Shown: positions 1-32,000, numbered from the stretch's first letter. The stretch is DNA of 32,000 bases from Candidatus Saccharimonadota bacterium (GCF_000185985.2 NC_014909.2:690001-722000); one strand, 5' to 3'. The notes: generated by a model from the letters alone, not told the origin. Translations and numbers: made by a program.

Positions 1-559
1 TCTAAAACCACTGCATTCCTTTTATTAATCAAAAAAACAACTTTATCACAAGAAATTTCAAAATAACCAAACACATACCCTATAATAAAATTATATACCA
101 CGATAAAAAAAAACACACACCACACAGAAACTAAAAATAAATGCCTCTCTGTAAATGCCACCAATTCTCTTAATAACATCATTAACAACAATTAATCATG
201 ATTTTCTTACATCAACTCTTTAAAAACAAAAATAATTAAATATTTCCCTTTTTTACCGATTAATCATCCCCTATTCAAATAACAATCAAACTAACACACC
301 TCAAGTTTAAACTCATATACTTTACAAACAACCAACCCATGCATAAGCTTTTATGCACTAAAACAAATTACCTCTCATACAATAGTAACACACATACATA
401 TATTACTACCAAAATTATTAAAAGTAAACATTTTCTCTTATCTGATTTTCATACCTAAAATAGATAAAAGAAACAACGTACAATTTTCTATAATTCAATT
501 GACAAACCCCTCCAATTCAAAGATACTACTCAGTATAATGGGAAGAGAGAAGAAAACTA

Positions 560-660
560 ATATATATATAACTATAACATACCACAATCAAATAATATAT
601 ACACACCTTCGTATGTGGCTGTAGCGTTTGTGTGTGCTACGATTGAGCTGTGGTATGATG
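560..660. other. Candidate replication-origin region: abrupt strand-composition inversion (plus strand C/A-rich to G/T-rich) at ~608/609
   Basis: Approximate hand counts: 1-600 has ~30 G vs ~130 C with A>T. From 609 on G>C and T>A (661-1020: ~60 G vs ~28 C), and all later spacers keep that polarity. Imperfect dyad cataccacaatc (578-589) / gattgagctgtggtatg (641-657) and a (TA)5 tract (561-570) flank the junction. No ORF >=60 aa in 1-959. No good DnaA box seen. Confidence 0.4.
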
Positions 661-1254
661 AATGAAAAAAAATAGTTTATATTTGTGCCCGGCCTTTATT
701 ATTATTGTATGCTACCTTCACTATTTTTAGCGGTTAATGTTCTTTAGAGAAAATCTAAAAAGAAATTTGAAGAATAGATTTCTTGTATAGTTATAAGAAG
801 GGTCGGTAATAAGTCTTGGGAAGTAAAGTTGGACTTTTTAGTGAAAGTAACAGTTATATATAAAATATATCATAGAATTATTGATCAGTAAAAATAAGAT
901 ATTGTAAAGTGTATTTATTCTTAATGATGAAATTAAAAAATCAATGTTGGGATATACACTTATGGTGGTGTGATGATATTAGTATAGTATATATGTTTTA
1001 AAATTATTTTACTTTCCTTATTTATATAATTAAAATGGTAGAAAAGCATGTGGTATTGTTGTGGGGTCAGAAATAAAAAATCCATTAAATAAAGATACAA
1101 AGTAATGTATAGAGATGACTTATTGAAAATAAGAAATTGATCCGATATGTTCATTGTGTAAAAAATTAAAAATAATAATTTAATATGCACTAAAGGGCAT
1201 ATATTTAGTATATATCATATATTTTTTATGTAGAAAACTCAGAGATATTGAGAC

Positions 1255-2229
1255 ATGATTATAGTTACTGGAGGAGCTGGATTTGTTGGTAGAAATATTA
1301 TAAAAAAGTTGAATGAGGTAGAGAAAAAAGAAATATTAGTAGTCGATAATCTTAGTAATGGTAAAAAATATAGAAATTTAATGAATTTAGATATTTCAGA
1401 TTATTTAGATAAAGATTATTTTATAAATAAATTATTAGATAACCCTAGTTATTTTAAAAATATAGAAGTAGTATTCCATGAAGGTGCTTGTTCTAATACA
1501 AGGGAATGGAATGGTAAATATTTGATGAAAAATAATTATGAATATTCTAAATTACTTTTATTTTACTGTATAAAATATGAGATTCCTTTTATATATGCCT
1601 CTTCTGCTTCAGTGTATGGATCAAATATGTGCAATGTTTATTGTCGTAATAATAAAATTATTAATTCAATTGAGAATCCGGTTACTATGTATGGTTACTC
1701 TAAATTTTTATTTGATCGGTATGTACATAATATATTGCCTAAGGTAAAGTCTCAAGTATGTGGTTTACGATATTTTAATATATACGGTCCTCATGAATTT
1801 CATAAAGGCCGAATGGCAAGTGTTATTTTAAATATATATAAAAAAGTTAAAAATAAAGAAAGTCCTATTTTATTTGTTGGAAGTAAAAATTTTAAAAGAG
1901 ATTTTGTATACATAGATGATATAGTGAATGTGAATTTATGGATTTGGTATAATAAAATATCTGGTATTTTTGATTGTGGTACGGGTCACGCTAGGTCTTT
2001 TGAATTTGTCACTAGTATTGTATTAAATCTTTTAAATTATAACACAATAAAGTATGTTACTATGCCAAAAGAAATACAAAAATATTATCAATATTTTACA
2101 AAAGCAAATATTTCTCAACTTCAAGGGATAGGATATGAAAATAAATTTATTGATGTAAATGAGGGTATTTATAAGTATTTAAATTGGCTGAATTTATATA
2201 TGTGTATGATAGTATATTATTTTGTATGA
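1255..2229 (+). CDS. hldD: ADP-L-glycero-D-manno-heptose 6-epimerase
   Basis: 324-aa ORF. MIIVTGGAGFVGRNI (Rossmann GxxGxxG), YGYSKF, RYFNIYGP and FKRDFVYIDD align end-to-end with E. coli HldD/RfaD as recalled (MIIVTGGAGFIGSNI, YGYSKF, RYFNVYGP, FKRDFVYVGD). About 14 aa longer at the C-terminus. Confidence 0.9.
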   Translation: MIIVTGGAGFVGRNIIKKLNEVEKKEILVVDNLSNGKKYRNLMNLDISDYLDKDYFINKLLDNPSYFKNIEVVFHEGACSNTREWNGKYLMKNNYEYSKLLLFYCIKYEIPFIYASSASVYGSNMCNVYCRNNKIINSIENPVTMYGYSKFLFDRYVHNILPKVKSQVCGLRYFNIYGPHEFHKGRMASVILNIYKKVKNKESPILFVGSKNFKRDFVYIDDIVNVNLWIWYNKISGIFDCGTGHARSFEFVTSIVLNLLNYNTIKYVTMPKEIQKYYQYFTKANISQLQGIGYENKFIDVNEGIYKYLNWLNLYMCMIVYYFV

Positions 2230-3481
2230 ACAGTGTTAATGATTAATTGTTTGGTAGAAAAAGATACAGTAATAGTGTATATTTTATATAAAAATTATTG
2301 TTTATGAAATATGGGTTATAATTAAAAGGTTGGTTGTATTGTTTCAATTCGGTATAAATAAATTTATAGTAAATAAAATGATAGGGTGAAAGAAATAAAT
2401 CTTATTACTTTCATAATATATTATTATATATAGAACTTTAAAATTATCAGCATATTATTAATAAAGAACAATTATTCGACAACTGTATGCAAGTAATAGC
2501 GTTAATTAATTCATTTAAATTTGTTTTCATATTTTTTATTGGGTACTTTTTTATTAGAGAAAAAAATTAGTTTGATGAAAATAAAATGATGCAATATAGG
2601 CTTTTATAGAAAATGATATACGTTAAAAATACAGTAGCAATTTTATTCATAATAGAAGATATGATTCTTTATAATATTATGTAGTATGATTTAAATATAA
2701 CAAAAATTTTCAGATTCGTCTTTTTATTGATATTATTTGTATTAAAAAATAAGGTAGTGAAATTCATAATAAATAATTTAGGTTTAAATTGCATAATTTT
2801 TATGTAAATAATTAATTGGGTATGATGATCTTGAATTAACATATGAATTATTAAAATTAGTTCTCTATTATTATTATATAATTTAAATTTAAAAGTAATT
2901 TGTATCATGGATGATACGTAGTAATTTGTAAGATTGTGATAAAATTGATTATCAATAAATAACGTTATTAAATTTGTTAAATTTAATAAACTGAAAAAAA
3001 TTTATTAGAATCTATTGAAATCATACTTCTTTAGAATAAAAAATTTTGGTTTTATTTATGTATTATATATGTCGCAAGGGGTAATAATTCAGGGATGGAG
3101 TATTTCTCTATAGTAAACGTAGTTTGTAGCAGATAATGTATAATGTATTTTTTTGTATTGGGAAAACATTATTATAAATCACATACACAAGCTTATCGTA
3201 GGGAGGTTGATGTGAATTCAATAGACATACATATATGATTCATATCATATATGTTACGTACGTTATTTTCTATTCCGATTTTTAGATAATAAGTAGTGTT
3301 TTGTCATCAAACATAGTATAACAGATATATATTGATATGTAGAATGAATAAAAATCGTCATATTATTCAATATAATGATGATTATCATAGGAATTTAATT
3401 AAAAAACTTCAATTCAAAAGTATTTAAAGAATTGAAACATTATTGAAGTAATAATTTTAATTTGTTAATGTAAATATTATA

Positions 3482-9768: not shown

Positions 9769-10203
9769 ATGAATAGATTAACAGATATTTCAAATATGGT
9801 AGAATCCTTATCTCGAGTTTATCATCGTCTTCGTAAAGAGGTAAATGGTCAGTTAATTAATGAAGGATTGTCTATGTCCAAAATGAAAATACTCCATCTC
9901 ATCACAACTGGTCAAATTAGTGCAACAGATATTAAGAACTATATGGGGTTTTCATCTAGAACTGTGGTTACAGTTTTAGATGCGTTGGAGAAAGATGAAA
10001 TGTTACGACGACAACAAAGTCTTACAGATAGACGAGTAAAATATGTACATATTACAGAGAAAGGAAGAGATAAATTACGTATAGCTAAAAATACTCATAA
10101 TATAATTTTAGATCGTATATTTTCTCCTTTATCGGAGGTACAACTTAAAAATTTTTATGAAGTATGTCATTTGCTGGAAATTCAACAAAAAACATCTAGA
10201 TAA
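9769..10203 (+). CDS. MarR/SlyA-family winged-helix transcriptional regulator
   Basis: 144-aa ORF. The core LSMSKMKILHLITTGQISATDIKNYMGFSSRTVVTVLDALEKDEMLRRQQSLTDRRVKYVHITEKGRDKL fits the MarR pattern: HTH, then LxxLEkxGlvxR, then the DRR wing, then lTekG. No orthologue at this position in E. coli (dinD-yicG-ligB there). Confidence 0.75.
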   Translation: MNRLTDISNMVESLSRVYHRLRKEVNGQLINEGLSMSKMKILHLITTGQISATDIKNYMGFSSRTVVTVLDALEKDEMLRRQQSLTDRRVKYVHITEKGRDKLRIAKNTHNIILDRIFSPLSEVQLKNFYEVCHLLEIQQKTSR

Positions 10204-10335
10204 ATTTTTATTATTATTTTATTTTATGAACAAAAGTAATATGTTAAACTGATCAGATATTTAAGATTCATATTATGAGTTACTAAGATAGTAGTAACGT
10301 GTTATTTTAAGTTGGTAAATTTTTAAAAATGTAAA

Positions 10336-10390
10336 ATCATGCACCTTCCCCCGGGGAAATTTCTTATTTCCCCGGGGGAAGGTGCATGAT
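10336..10390. repeat. 55-bp GC-rich perfect palindrome (25-bp arms, 5-nt spacer) between the MarR-family gene and gmk
   Basis: atcatgcaccttcccccggggaaat (10336-10360), spacer ttctt, then atttccccgggggaaggtgcatgat (10366-10390). The arms are exact reverse complements, 14/25 G+C, each containing cccggg. Confidence 0.95.
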
Positions 10391-10430
10391 AGTAATCATT
10401 TAATTAAAATAGTAGAATGTTTTAGGGTAT

Positions 10431-11309: not shown

Positions 11310-12353
11310 TACATATCTTGCATACAAAATAAAAGTCTTTCTTTGATTTAAATTTATCAATTATTATCATTAATTTATGTATTAATTATATATCAAGAAG
11401 GACGGGGTATGCTAAAACAAGCAAGGTATTTTATAAAATTTTTTATATAGCAGAATATAGAATTAAATGGGTGAATTTTATTATATTTGAATACTATAAT
11501 TTAAAAAATTATTATATTGGGGGGTCGTTTATTTTTTGTATCCTGGGTTTAGGTAGAATTTAATAATGAATCTTATATATCATATTGATATATACTATCA
11601 AAGTATGTAATTGTTCACGTATACATTCAAAATATAAATAAAGTTATTGTGTTTTTGTGTTTACCGGTATAAGTAAAATAGTATACTTTCTATTTTTAAT
11701 AGTGGATAATCAATTCTTCATATTGTAGTGTGTGTAAGTATTGCAGTGCTCATTTGAACTTGATATTTTTGAATAAGTGTTAATAAATAACTAGGAAAGA
11801 AAAGTTTCGAATCAGAGTACTGTTGAAATAAGAATCATAATTTCATGATGCTTAAGGTATCAGTATTATTTAGTTTTATAAATAATAAAAAAATATCAAT
11901 AAATTTTGACAAGGATTTATATTAATATTCAATATATTTATATTACTTCAATTATTTAAATAAATTTTTTTATAAAAAATGAAAAATATCACGATAAATA
12001 AGTACATTACAATTGATTATGATATTTTAAGTAAATTTTAGAAATCAATAACATCATTGAACACTACATTAAAACTAAATTAAAAATTATTATTAATAAG
12101 TCGTTGATAAAATCTCCATAAGTATTCAATGTAAAAAGAAATTAGCTACATATAACTTTTTATTATTTGCGTTAAAAATTGAATTTTATTTTTTATAAAA
12201 GAATTTTATTTATTGAATAGAAGATTTTTAATAAATAAATTGTAGTTTTTTAATTTAATATTATAAGATAGAATATAGCAATTATTGTAGTATTTATATA
12301 CTCTATATACTATAGTAGTAATAATTTTTTAAACATTGGTATTATTTTCTTGA

Positions 12354-15206
12354 TTAATGGGCTTGTTCCCAATTTTTTCCAACTCCAATATCTACTTTTA
12401 AAGGAACATTTAAAATAAAACATTCTTCCATAAGTTTTCTAATTTGTTTTACTGCAATATCTACAAATGTATTATTTACTTCAAAAACTAATTCATCATG
12501 TACTTGCATAATCATGTGAACAGGGATATTATCTGTTTGTAACCAAGAATCAATAGATATCATTGCTCTTTTAATGATATCTGCAGCGCTTCCTTGCATA
12601 GGAGCATTAATTGCTGATCTTTCGGCTCCTTTTTTTTGGGATATATTAGAAGAGTAAATATCTGGTAAATATAATTTACGGCCATCTAAAGTGGATACGT
12701 ATCCATTTTTTTTAGCATAATCCTTAATATATTGCATATATTGCATAACTCCAGGATAGCGTTGAAAATATCGGTCTACATATTTTTGAGCTTCTTGACA
12801 TGTTACTGATAATTGTTTTGATAATCCAAAAGCAGTCATACCATAAATTAAACCAAAATTAACAGTTTTTGCGCGCTGTCTTTGCTCTCCTGTCACTAAA
12901 TGTAATGACGTAACAAAGATTTCAGAGGCTGTTGTGGTATGAATGTCTTTTTCTTCAAGAAAATCATTAATTAATTTGAGATCGCGAGATAAATGAGCCA
13001 TAATTCTTAATTCTATTTGAGAGTAATCCGCTGATATAATTAAAGAATTTTCTGGAGCAATAAAGGCTTGCCGTATTTTTCTTCCGTCATAATTGCGATT
13101 GGGAATATTTTGAAGATTAGGATTTGTGGAAGAGAGTCGTCCAGTGGAAGTTCGAGTTTGATTATATGAAGTATGTATACGATTTGACTTTTTATTGATC
13201 ATAGATATTAATTTATTAGTATATGTTGATTTTAATTTAGATAAACTTCTATATTTTAAAATAATCTTGGGTATAGAGTGTTTTTTGGATAATTTTTTTA
13301 GTACTTCTTCGCTAGTAGAAGGAGCTCCATGAGGAGTTTTTTTAAAAATTGGTAATTTTTCTTGATTATATAAGATTTCTTGTAATTGTTTGGGAGAATC
13401 TAAATTAAATGAAGACCCTGTTAATTGATATGCTTGTGTTTTTAAATTGTTTAGCTGAGAATTTAGTTTTATTGAATGAGAATATAAAAATTTTTTATCT
13501 ATTAATACTCCATAATCTTCAATTCTAGAAAGAACGGATATTAATGGTATTTCTATATTTATAAATATTTTTTTTAATTCGTTATGTTGTTTTATTTCTG
13601 TCCATAAAATTTGATGTAAATTTGATATGGCATATATTAATTGCGTTGAACATGATGATTCTAATTGTATATCTCTAATATTTTTTTTAATAAGATATTT
13701 ATTATTATTATAGATTTGTTGGAATTTAAAAATATGATCTAATATTGTAGTTTTATTTAAAAAACGTTTTATATTTTGATAATTAGAAGTGCCATATAAT
13801 ACATATAATTCTAGTATTACATCAAAAATTGGTCCAGATAAATGTATATTATGTTGTTTTAATAAAGAAAAAATAAATTTCATATTATGTCCAATTTTTT
13901 TTATTTTTATATTTTCTAAAATTGGTTTCAAAATAGATAATACTTCTGTTAGATTTAAATACCATTGGTACGTATCGTTATTATTATCTATATTTAAAGT
14001 ATGTTGAATATTGATTGGTATATATGCGTTATGCATGGAATTCATAGTGTATGTAGATATACATATTCCAATGATATTAGGAGTAAAAATATCAAAATTA
14101 TTTGAATATATATTCAAGATAAAACAGTGGTGAGTGTTATTTTGTTTTATCCAATTTGTTAGTGATGAAATATTAGATATAATGTCGTTATTATTACTAG
14201 ATGGGAATGATGGATAATAGTTACATGTATGTGTTATAGTATTTGAAATAAGAGAGGTGTTGCTTAGTTGAGAATTTTGAGTTGATGATTTTTTAGTATT
14301 TTTGTATTTTTTTAACCATGTACCTGCCTGTAGCTCTGATACCCAAGTATTAAATTCGTATTTTTTAAATAATAAAAATAATTGTTGGGAATCAATATTT
14401 TGTATTAATAATTTATAGTCAGATTGGTTTAAAGGAACATCGATTTTCACAGTTGCTAATTTATAGGAAAGGAAGGCTAATTTTTTATTTTTAATTAATG
14501 TATTTTTTATCGATTGGGAATTTCGAAGATTTAAAATGGATATTTTATGTAAGTTTTGATATAGTGTTTGTAGGTTACCGATGTTGTTTAATAAAATTTT
14601 AGCGTTTTTTATGCCTATTCCTGGTACTCCAGGAATATTATCGGAACGATCTCCAATTAATGCTAAATAATCTGCTATTAGATTAGGTGATACCCCAAAT
14701 TTTTTTTTTATTTCTAAAGAGTCCAATATGATATTAGACATAGTATTTATTAAAATAATGTTAGAAGATACAATTTGAGCCATGTCTTTATCTCCAGTGC
14801 TAATTAACACTGTTTTGTTTTTTAGTTGAGCATAAAAATTAGATAATGTTGCGATTACATCATCTGCTTCTACATAAGGTACGCTTAGCGCGGTAATTCC
14901 CATTGCTTTTATTATTGTATTTAGAGGTGTAATCTGAATACATAAATCTTCGGGCATTTGAGGTCGATTCGATTTATATTGTTTAAATAAATCATTACGA
15001 AATGTTTTACCGGGGGAGTCAAATACAATACCCATATGAATAGGTCGATATTTTATTAATAAGCTTCTAATCATGTTTATAACTCCATATATAACCCAAA
15101 CAGGATATCCTGTGCTTGTTGTTAAAGGTGGATATGCATGATATGCTCGATATATATAAAAAGATCCATCTATTAAAATAATTGGATTATCTATAATATT
15201 AGTCAT
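12354..15206 (-). CDS. polA: DNA polymerase I
   Basis: 950-aa ORF colinear with E. coli PolA (928 aa). 5'-nuclease blocks: NPIILIDGSFYIYRAYHA, GDKDMAQ, DNIPGVPGIG. Polymerase motifs: SADYSQIELRIMAHLS, RAKTVNFGLIYGM, QVHDELVFE. The central 3'-5' exonuclease domain is recognisable but degenerate (see findings). Confidence 0.95.
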   Translation of the reverse strand: MTNIIDNPIILIDGSFYIYRAYHAYPPLTTSTGYPVWVIYGVINMIRSLLIKYRPIHMGIVFDSPGKTFRNDLFKQYKSNRPQMPEDLCIQITPLNTIIKAMGITALSVPYVEADDVIATLSNFYAQLKNKTVLISTGDKDMAQIVSSNIILINTMSNIILDSLEIKKKFGVSPNLIADYLALIGDRSDNIPGVPGIGIKNAKILLNNIGNLQTLYQNLHKISILNLRNSQSIKNTLIKNKKLAFLSYKLATVKIDVPLNQSDYKLLIQNIDSQQLFLLFKKYEFNTWVSELQAGTWLKKYKNTKKSSTQNSQLSNTSLISNTITHTCNYYPSFPSSNNNDIISNISSLTNWIKQNNTHHCFILNIYSNNFDIFTPNIIGICISTYTMNSMHNAYIPINIQHTLNIDNNNDTYQWYLNLTEVLSILKPILENIKIKKIGHNMKFIFSLLKQHNIHLSGPIFDVILELYVLYGTSNYQNIKRFLNKTTILDHIFKFQQIYNNNKYLIKKNIRDIQLESSCSTQLIYAISNLHQILWTEIKQHNELKKIFINIEIPLISVLSRIEDYGVLIDKKFLYSHSIKLNSQLNNLKTQAYQLTGSSFNLDSPKQLQEILYNQEKLPIFKKTPHGAPSTSEEVLKKLSKKHSIPKIILKYRSLSKLKSTYTNKLISMINKKSNRIHTSYNQTRTSTGRLSSTNPNLQNIPNRNYDGRKIRQAFIAPENSLIISADYSQIELRIMAHLSRDLKLINDFLEEKDIHTTTASEIFVTSLHLVTGEQRQRAKTVNFGLIYGMTAFGLSKQLSVTCQEAQKYVDRYFQRYPGVMQYMQYIKDYAKKNGYVSTLDGRKLYLPDIYSSNISQKKGAERSAINAPMQGSAADIIKRAMISIDSWLQTDNIPVHMIMQVHDELVFEVNNTFVDIAVKQIRKLMEECFILNVPLKVDIGVGKNWEQAH

Positions 15207-22311: not shown

Positions 22312-23480
22312 ATTTTTTTATGGGTTTGATCAAATTGTATTATCAATATTAGTATATGTTTGTAACATATTATTAAATAAATAAAAATTTATATAATAAA
22401 GTATTTTTTAATAAATTGAATATATAGAATGCGATTTGTTTTATTGTAAATTTAGAAATTGTAGCCTGTCTTTAGTAAGAAGTGTGTTAAAAACTTAATA
22501 ATAATTCCAATTTATTACAAGAGATAATTTTTTTATTTTAAAATTATTGTTGAGATGGTATGTGGTGTTTAAACAAGTGTTGAAACGTTGTATGTGCTGA
22601 ATTTTAGTTTGGATTCATATATATGCATAAAAATAATATCCCTATTACAAGATGAGAATATAAAATAGATTATTGCTTGTGTTATTTAATAATTATTTTT
22701 AAAGTATTTGCAACAATGAAGTTTTGTATTTTAATCAGATAATTTTATGCATACCAATACTATTGTGCAAGAATTTATGTTATATGTTAGTTACAGTTTT
22801 TTGTGAGTATGATTTTATCATAAAAAAGTATGTTGAAATATTTGGTAGATTAGAGTGTAAATTATTTGAAGAAGATATCTAATTTGTACTACTTTGTGTA
22901 TAATATATTCTAATTTCTCTTACTTTTAGTTTATGTGAGATATAAATTATTATAAAAATAAGCAACAGTTGTTTCCAATTTTATTGGAATATACGGTAAT
23001 ATCGTTAATAATTGTTTATTGTAATGATTTTATATATAGATGAAAAATAATTTTCTAATATATTCGCATAACACTTATATCTATATAAGAAGAGATATAT
23101 AATTTTAATTGATTTCTATATATTTTTAAAAATATTTTTTATCTTCTTATAATAAGATTAGGTTAATTTTTATTCTTATAAATAAGAATGTATGAATAAT
23201 ATTTAAATTTTTAAAAAATAAAGATCAGTATTTACTATTAATTTTTATTAGTTGTATCGTTAATATATAACGATTGATAAATATTTATAGTTATTTGTTT
23301 TGGTAAATCTATTTTTTATAGTAATCGAATTTTCGAAATATAAAATACCCAGAAATTGTATTATTATATTTTTTAGATTTAAATTACAAAAACAATGAAG
23401 GTTAATTACTAAATATTAGCAATAATACTGGTATTTTAGAAAATTTTAAAACATCCATATAGATAATTATAATGTCATGA

Positions 23481-26943: not shown

Positions 26944-27770
26944 ATATTCCCCTACTAAAATGATTATATGTGTATTGTATATAGAAATAGAAATGCATAT
27001 CATATTTGATGTACAGAATTATATGACATACATGAAATTGTATATGGAGATAAATCTGTTGTTGAATTATTTATAATAATATCTTATATTTCAGGTACAT
27101 AATAGTTAATTATTATTATGTATTAGATTTAATTAATTTAGTACAATGTTGTTATGGTTATGTCGTATCGTATTAGATACGATGTTATTATTTTCCTTTT
27201 TAAGGAACTATTTCTTATAAAATAAATTAAAGTGAATATTTATTCATAGTATGTGAATAAGTATTATATTAAAAAATAGGTGTTTTAGTGTATATAAAAA
27301 TAATATATAAGTTATTTTTATATTATTGATTGTATTAGATATATTGTTCATATATTTATATGATTTTTTAAATTTAATTTAATCAAATAGTAACAATGCA
27401 TTTATTTATATTTAAATTTTATCATCATTTATAAAAATTGAATAGAATTCAATAAAATAATAATATGTTGGGTATGAGGGATAATTTTCTATTTGATTAA
27501 ACTAAATTATTTATTTATTAATAAAAATTATAATTGATCATTATTTTGTGTTTAAGAATGAAATTTGATTTTATATAGATTGTAAAATAAGCTAATTTGA
27601 TAAGTTTATAAATTTAATATTTTTATATTCGTTTATTATGTACATTAGGTTTTGTATAAAAATATATTTTGTAAATATTCTGTAGCACAGAGGTTTTATA
27701 TAATTGCGATTATTTCAACAATGTATAGAAAGATTGTTTATACTATACAAGGAAGGTATAAGTAGGGAAT

Positions 27771-31857: not shown

Positions 31858-31907
31858 TTGAATAATATTATAATGATATACCTTATTTTATGTTTATTTA
31901 TTTATAA

Positions 31908-31980
31908 TAGGCCTGAGTGGATTTGAACCACCGTCCTCACCCTTATCAGGGGTGCGCTCTAACCGCTGAGCTACAAGCCT
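31908..31980 (-). tRNA. ileT: tRNA-Ile (anticodon GAU)
   Basis: The reverse complement reads AGGCTTGTAGCTCAGCGGTTAGAGCGCACCCCTGATAAGGGTGAGGACGGTGGTTCAAATCCACTCAGGCCTA. It folds as a full cloverleaf: acceptor AGGCTTG/CAGGCCT, D stem GCTC/GAGC, anticodon stem CACCC/GGGTG with loop CTGATAA, T arm GGTGG-TTCAAAT-CCACT. Nearly identical to the E. coli rRNA-spacer tRNA-Ile. CCA is not encoded. Confidence 0.93.
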
Positions 31981-32000
31981 AATTCGTAAATTTTAGTTTT

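Follow-up and report, generated by a model that had tools for sequence, protein, structure and literature searches.

How bacteria replicate their chromosomes without DnaA is an open question, and Blochmannia is a classic case of it. Is there still one fixed place from which the replication forks diverge in such a chromosome? The 32,000-nucleotide stretch of DNA analyzed here (hereafter, the window) raises this question in its first lines. An earlier note, made from the raw sequence, had described a sharp inversion of strand composition at around position 608/609 and had read it as a candidate replication origin. I reanalyzed this locus together with the orthologous loci of related genomes and with the published record.

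Identity of the window and the published record

HldD, encoded near the left end of the window, matches the Candidatus Blochmannia (Blochmanniella) vafer BVAF protein with 100% identity, and the same is true of MetA at the other end. Judged by these two proteins, the window comes from the carpenter-ant endosymbiont Candidatus Blochmannia vafer BVAF, whose genome is 722,585 bp in size. The earlier note had suspected an endosymbiont possibly without dnaA and had mentioned Blochmannia by name, which was a good guess. The dnaA gene is absent from the Blochmannia of Camponotus (PMC4389277), and the lineage is reported to have neither dnaA nor a DnaA-box cluster (PMC3017870, PMC3268670). In the window, dnaA was not found, and mnmG was absent among the ORFs of at least 80 amino acids. 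The features of the window are summarized in Table 1.

The first part of the window had been taken as gene-free. It was revealed that the minus strand at its left end encodes the YibN N-terminus, which confines the spacer proper to the interval between yibN and hldD. In tblastn searches, residues 4-58 of the B. floridanus YibN matched window positions 170..6 with 45% identity (E = 6e-14), and YibN queries from B. floridanus, B. chromaiodes, and the L010 genome all hit the same positions with 37-46% identity (E = 6e-14 to 1e-11). The yibN gene is missing from any ORF list because its ORF runs off the window.

The locus is not new to the literature. [quoted passage not shown] According to the same two papers, the shift lies about 31.5-32 kb upstream of mnmG (gidA), the ancestral site. 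A relocation of the origin before the split of B. vafer and B. floridanus was proposed (PMC3268670), and the 32 kb covered by the window was described as a deletion hotspot in which gene loss is concentrated (PMC3017870). The skew switch in the window is a correct rediscovery of this known feature, at the same locus of the same genome and with nothing essential that differs, and the window is essentially the published 'relocation region'. The finding alone adds no new biology, while it confirms that the reading of raw sequence can recover a real and subtle feature. What this study adds is a change point at base level, the yibN boundary at 182, the finding that the dyad at the switch is at chance level, a GC-rich and structured island where the composition switches in B. 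vafer and B. floridanus alike, relatives in which ancestral polarity goes together with several of the gene losses, and a further origin position in B. ocreatus that may be read from its skew. They are leads for experimental origin mapping.

Table 1. Features of the B. vafer window, in nucleotide positions counted from its first letter.
Feature	Position	Strand	Remarks
yibN 5' end (rhodanese-domain protein)	1-182	-	Start codons Met-Met 182-177; runs off the left window end
yibN-hldD spacer	183-1254		1,072 bp
C-/A-rich (lagging-type) half of the yibN-hldD spacer	183-608		G22 C89 A188 T127; GC skew -0.60, AT skew +0.19
G/C change-point support interval	518-615		Best estimate 610/611; putative fork divergence point
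AT-rich tract, including (TA)5 at 561-570	553-600		85% AT; left flank of the GC-rich island; candidate unwinding region only
GC-rich island with imperfect dyad	578-657		Arms CATACCACA 578-586 and TGTGGTATG 649-657; nested ACACAC 601-606 and GTGTGT 630-635; center ~618, at the switch
G-rich (leading-type) half, 5' of hldD	609-1254		G118 C49; GC skew +0.41
Leading-strand signature	609-32000	+	~31.4 kb; between the putative present (yibN-hldD) and ancestral (mnmG) origin positions
hldD (ADP-glyceromanno-heptose 6-epimerase)	1255-2229	+	NCBIfam TIGR02197, E = 1e-112; first complete gene
hldD, rfaC, waaA	after yibN	+	Gene map order
rpmG, rpmB	after waaA	-	
dut, yicC, MarR-family gene, gmk, rpoZ	after rpmB	+	
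polA, dsbA, ubiD, ubiB, ubiE, rmuC, metE, rpoH	after rpoZ	-	
rsmD	after rpoH	+	
pgi, metA, tRNA-Ile	after rsmD, to the window end	-	tRNA-Ile 31907-31981; window ends ~0.4 kb past metA
rfaF loss site	2230-3481		By comparison with B. floridanus
glnA loss site	11310-12353		By comparison with B. floridanus
Apparent udp loss site	22312-23480		Between rmuC and metE; by comparison with B. floridanus (L015)
Apparent ftsY loss site	27004-27770		Between rpoH and rsmD; by comparison with B. floridanus (L015)

A skew switch in the yibN-hldD spacer

Is the composition inversion real? The approximate hand counts of the earlier note were close to the exact ones: 29 G and 128 C in 1-600 (estimated as ~30 and ~130), and 61 G and 27 C in 661-1020 (estimated as ~60 and ~28). 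The first interval also has 272 A and 171 T, giving a GC skew of -0.63 and an AT skew of +0.23, while the second has a GC skew of +0.39. The two non-coding halves, 183-608 and 609-1254, differ in G/C with a Fisher p value of 3.8e-17. The cumulative G-C minimum is at 610, in agreement with the inversion proposed at 608/609. In a two-segment model, the maximum-likelihood change point is at 610/611, and the 2-lnL support interval of 518-615 is wide because of a G cluster at 540-552. Thus, the claim that the switch is completed within about 10 bp was over-precise; it is sharp at the 100-bp scale.

The inversion had been described as C>G with A>T flipping to G>C with T>A. The G/C reversal is strong, but the A/T reversal is weak, since the AT skew changes from +0.19 to just +0.01 across the switch (p = 0.011). 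Likewise, the later spacers had been described as G/T-rich. All 18 intergenic spacers right of the switch do have more G than C (pooled skew +0.33 over 9.2 kb), but the T component is faint, with a pooled AT skew of just -0.07. The cumulative skew climbs monotonically right of the switch. The GC3 skew on the plus strand of the window is positive in 17 of the 19 genes on this side, while that of the yibN fragment on the other side is -0.88. On the left, the window offers 608 bp, 182 bp of which belong to the minus-strand gene yibN.

One may suppose that the switch is an effect of transcription or of the coding strand at a divergent gene pair, because yibN and its neighbors run leftward while hldD to gmk run rightward. 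A gene-strand component does exist. The GC3 skew of the plus-strand genes right of the switch ranges from +0.46 to +0.76 (except for gmk, +0.21) and exceeds that of the minus-strand genes (-0.17 to +0.36). However, gene orientation modulates the skew without setting its sign. G exceeds C at the third codon positions of nine of the 11 minus-strand genes, and also in the spacers that lie between minus-strand genes. These minus-strand genes, together with the spacers to the right, are decisive, and the argument that a decayed minus-strand gene should leave T>A is superfluous. Furthermore, the B. floridanus plus-strand genes fpr and tpiA, upstream of its switch, sit in C-rich sequence, and the same divergent gene pair occurs without a flip at L010, L011, L012, B. 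chromaiodes, B. ocreatus, and L013. An origin of the switch in gene orientation is therefore very improbable.

Comparison with other Blochmannia genomes

Orthologous loci were gathered via HldD and MetA homologues, giving seven related loci and, with B. vafer, eight genomes. The gene order and orientation, yibN(-), hldD(+), rfaC, waaA and so on, are identical in all eight, with or without the flip. B. floridanus flips in the orthologous yibN-hldD spacer, where the support interval is 9827-9940 of its record (L006), 60-170 bp upstream of hldD. Over 10 kb on either side, its intergenic skew is -0.79 upstream and +0.32 downstream, and the G-rich polarity persists to the record end at metA.

These loci bear on the possibility that the break has nothing to do with the start of replication and is the end of a local inversion or insert, in which either 1-608 or the 31-kb block on the right was flipped. 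A composition break alone cannot separate an inversion end from a replichore boundary, and the 608 bp visible on the left are a short piece to judge from. However, the gene order and orientation of B. vafer match those of the seven other Blochmannia loci, at least five of which have no flip, and a flipped 31-kb block would put metA, not hldD, beside yibN. Positions 1-182 are the orthologous yibN in its normal orientation. The earlier note had held that a return to G-rich sequence upstream of the window would speak for an inversion; in the B. floridanus orthologue, the sequence stays C-rich for at least 10 kb on that side. Since synteny is kept across the switch, an inversion is practically excluded, and I give this explanation hardly any credence.

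The remaining genomes show other polarities. L010 and L012/L014 (Logan contigs; L012 and L014 are parts of the 43.7-kb contig 81 of SRR32934490) are C-rich to the left and to the right of hldD, and this continues in L014 through to the mnmG-metA spacer. This C-rich polarity is the ancestral arrangement. B. chromaiodes has almost no skew. Five proteins were concatenated for a neighbor-joining tree, in which B. vafer and B. floridanus group together with 89% bootstrap support and L010 and L012 form a separate pair (99%) within the same larger clade. The tree fits a single relocation of the origin in the common ancestor of B. vafer and B. floridanus. L012/L014, with their ancestral polarity, share several of the gene losses. 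Because they belong to the same clade, some of the losses attributed to the relocation may predate it or be independent of it.

In B. ocreatus, the hldD strand is G-rich to either side of hldD (L009, CP097762.1, 674392-695333; intergenic skew +0.25 and +0.36), and the flanks of the mnmG-metA spacer are G-rich on this strand too (L016, 709580-730464). Therefore, the origin-type switch is at neither site and lies more than 10 kb upstream of hldD. Tentatively, the skew places the origin of B. ocreatus at a third position. L013 (contig 301 of Logan SRR32934492) has a B. ocreatus-like polarity, with skews of +0.56 and +0.53. Neither skew nor origin is mentioned in the B. ocreatus genome paper (PMC9251289).

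The switch as a probable replichore boundary

What does the switch mean, then? It is known that G comes to exceed C on the leading strand and, weakly, T to exceed A, mainly via deamination of cytosine while the strand is single-stranded. At an origin, the sign of the skew changes because one and the same strand is leading on the right side and lagging on the left. Very probably, 518-615 is the boundary between the two replichores of B. vafer, with origin polarity, and thus the point at which the forks have diverged over the long term. The same polarity had been assigned by the earlier note, and it is supported by the persistence of the skew over 31 kb, by genes on both strands, by the B. floridanus orthologue, and by the published skew. 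For the persistence of C-rich sequence upstream in B. vafer itself, the published plots and the B. floridanus orthologue are the basis. The first gene of the right replichore would be hldD. The skew amplitude is unusually large in Blochmannia owing to the loss of replication-restart and repair genes (Klasson and Andersson 2006, cited in PMC2671203).

On this basis, the origin would sit between yibN and hldD, at a distance of about 31.5 kb from the ancestral gammaproteobacterial site beside mnmG, and the intervening 31 kb would have re-equilibrated to the new polarity. Initiation at the switch would have to be DnaA-independent because dnaA is absent. The switch is the best available pointer to the initiation site in B. 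vafer and B. floridanus. In addition, the 31 kb whose replication polarity was changed offer a natural experiment on gene loss and on mutation pressure that is specific to the strand. These implications were already recognized by Williams and Wernegreen in 2010 and 2012.

The skew is a long-term average of fork direction and not a record of present-day firing. The switch might be a historical footprint only, recording where the forks diverged during most of the past of the lineage; without DnaA, PriA, and RecA, initiation may now be dispersed, may occur at multiple sites, or may have moved again. The skew integrates over very long times, the origin site has been labile in evolution, and no conserved cis-element was found, all of which would suit such a history. 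On the other hand, the sharpness of the switch (100 bp or less) and its high amplitude require a single well-defined site that was used for long. Dispersed initiation gives a flat or irregular skew, as described for DnaA-independent cyanobacteria (PMC7198777). In contrast to these, the Blochmannia switch is very strong and sharp, which implies one fixed site. A mere footprint is thus distinctly improbable, and a boundary at a site of lasting use is the preferred reading.

Sequence elements at the switch site

If the forks diverge in 518-615, is there any element that could define the site? The earlier note had pointed to several motifs around the switch, namely the (TA)5 tract, an imperfect dyad (CATACCACAATC at 578-589 versus GATTGAGCTGTGGTATG at 641-657) with ACACAC/GTGTGT nested in it, and the DnaA-box-like TTATGCACT at 351-359. 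All of them were placed correctly, but the dyad and the (TA)5 tract turned out to be at chance level. Inverted repeats of 9 bp with loops of up to 80 nt occur at 5.7 per kb in B. vafer spacers, and a repeat straddling the boundary arose in 8.4% of shuffles that preserve the composition of each side. For these reasons, the dyad by itself was rejected as a significant feature. The AT-rich tract at 553-600 is undistinctive, as the spacer mean is ~80% AT and no 40-bp window reaches 95% AT. Simple repeats are plentiful in the B. vafer genome (PMC3268670, Table 2), which makes the (TA)5 tract uninformative.

The dyad lies in a GC-rich island. The 50-bp window starting at 604 has a GC content of 0.52, while the spacer mean is 0.197 and the 99th percentile 0.38. 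Among the five islands with at least 40% GC in 10.3 kb of B. vafer spacers, three fall at 503-735, around the switch. The island at 578-657 is the most stable 100-nt fold of the yibN-hldD spacer, with a DNA fold of -13 kcal/mol (z = -2.2). No RNA gene was detected at the island by ARAGORN, nor by Rfam at the gathering score; the sole Rfam match at a relaxed threshold was viral, with a meaningless E value of 0.58.

The spacer is also unusual in size and composition. It is 1,072 bp long in B. vafer, compared with 314-562 bp in the seven relatives, and its G+C content is 25.9%, compared with ~19-20% in other B. vafer spacers. The extra length lies entirely on the G-rich side, 609-1254, where B. 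floridanus has only ~60-170 bp. A decayed gene was considered for this spacer and rejected: a six-frame Pfam scan of 183-1254 was empty at E values up to 1, and so was tblastn with the GrxC and SecB of relatives. In 609-1254, Rfam gave no match at E <0.5.

The elements of a conventional origin were searched for. The earlier note had found no convincing DnaA boxes. Indeed, the spacer has no DnaA-box cluster, and boxes with up to one mismatch are not enriched in the window (145, compared with 137 +/- 12 expected). However, one perfect TTWTNCACA had been overlooked at 1155-1163 on the minus strand, and there are four one-mismatch sites in the spacer. Clustering of GATC is absent, too, the two sites in 1,072 bp matching the 2 per kb of the window as a whole. 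The E. coli-type 13-mer unwinding element is absent from the spacer, as no GATCTNTTNTTTT match was found. In the published analysis, TTATCCACA had no match near either origin position, even with one mismatch (PMC3268670). Sigma-70-like sites number nine in 1-1400, compared with 11.6 +/- 3.0 expected. One of them (499-527, 10/12 matches) faces the switch and is indistinguishable from chance. There is no enrichment of promoters or terminators.

The octamer ATACCACA/TGTGGTAT was seen three times in the spacer (579-586, 649-656, and 1049-1056) and once more at 12933, while ~1.1 occurrences are expected per 32-kb window. It was set aside because it had been picked post hoc out of the dyad arms and does not occur in the B. 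floridanus spacer.

Does B. floridanus have a similar element? In blastn comparisons of B. vafer with the seven orthologous spacers, conserved blocks were lacking; there were merely AT-rich matches of ~60% identity in both orientations. Positions 560-700 of B. vafer and the palindrome region of B. floridanus described below were no more similar than expected by chance (Smith-Waterman p = 0.28). No block is conserved between the two spacers, and no shared cis-element emerged. What the two flipped genomes have in common is the place of the switch: in each, it falls on the island of the spacer that is richest in GC and folds most stably. The B. floridanus island is a perfect palindrome with a 34-bp stem (L006 9897-9966, -41 kcal/mol, z = -13) on the right margin of the switch interval, and it is the sole spacer island with at least 36% GC in the 21-kb locus. 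The islands of B. vafer and B. floridanus have no sequence in common. The six non-flipped genomes have no island above 32% G+C in the yibN-hldD spacer, and their best local folds range from -11.5 to -31 kcal/mol with RNA parameters, compared with -59 for B. floridanus.

From the positional coincidence in two genomes, the best candidate for a cis-element would be 578-657, the GC-rich dyad island, together with the AT-rich DNA on either side. One may go further and suppose that in DnaA-less Blochmannia, with B. floridanus reportedly also lacking PriA and RecA, the origin is set by structure, that is, by a structure-forming GC-rich dyad with AT-rich flanks and no conserved sequence, so that such sites arise anew and the origin wanders. 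The islands at the two switches, the lack of such islands in the six non-flipped genomes, and the third origin position suggested by the B. ocreatus skew speak for it. I regard this extension as unlikely, albeit with a small chance of being right. The B. vafer dyad is at chance level, and the two islands differ in sequence. B. chromaiodes, which has no flip, folds better (-31 kcal/mol) than B. vafer (-25 kcal/mol) with RNA parameters. The two flipped genomes count as one event because they are sisters. B. floridanus spacers are rich in long palindromes (five in 21 kb), and 20 were counted genome-wide (PMC3017870). The palindrome at the B. floridanus switch lies only 69 bp from where hldD starts and may have a regulatory role. 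L014 was examined for a palindrome at its ancestral origin near mnmG; there, the skew switch is poorly resolved, and the sole GC-rich island is tRNA-Ile.

Comparison with known modes of initiation

Which known system does the switch resemble? The E. coli-type oriC lies between mnmG and mioC and has DnaA boxes, a 13-mer AT-rich unwinding element, and a GATC cluster. The B. vafer switch is like the canonical gammaproteobacterial oriC in its skew polarity and in its position in a spacer between divergent genes. In contrast, it is 31.5 kb from mnmG, has no DnaA-box cluster, no GATC cluster, and no 13-mer, and belongs to a lineage without dnaA.

To my knowledge, PriA/RecA-dependent stable DNA replication (oriK) and ColE1-type R-loop origins are the only well-studied modes of DnaA-free initiation in enterobacteria. 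A hairpin-forming site beside an AT-rich tract resembles a primosome assembly site. The key proteins PriA and RecA are, however, probably missing in Blochmannia, as judged from their reported absence in B. floridanus. In that genome, priA, recA, dnaT, topA, and fis are reported absent (PMC2671203, citing Klasson and Andersson 2006), which makes R-loop or D-loop routes via PriA/RecA unlikely. Other dnaA-less symbionts (Wigglesworthia, Baumannia, Carsonella, Sulcia, and Blattabacterium) and some cyanobacteria resemble Blochmannia in the lack of dnaA, and a control of replication by the host has been proposed for the dnaA-less symbionts (PMC4389277, PMC7198777).

Gene losses and palindromes in the proposed relocation region

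In relatives, mnmG follows metA. The long spacers of the window mark gene losses of B. vafer in comparison with B. floridanus (Table 1). Among the lost genes, udp and ftsY are apparently missing in B. vafer; ftsY encodes the SRP receptor, and its loss would be notable for a bacterium.

In the spacer that separates gmk from the MarR-family gene, B. vafer has a long palindrome whose core is GC-rich (TGCACCTTCCCCCGGGG...), at 10323-10403 of the window. The orthologous B. floridanus spacer has a perfect palindrome with 26-bp arms (L006 18237-18288) of unrelated sequence. The two genomes share the position of the palindrome but not its sequence.
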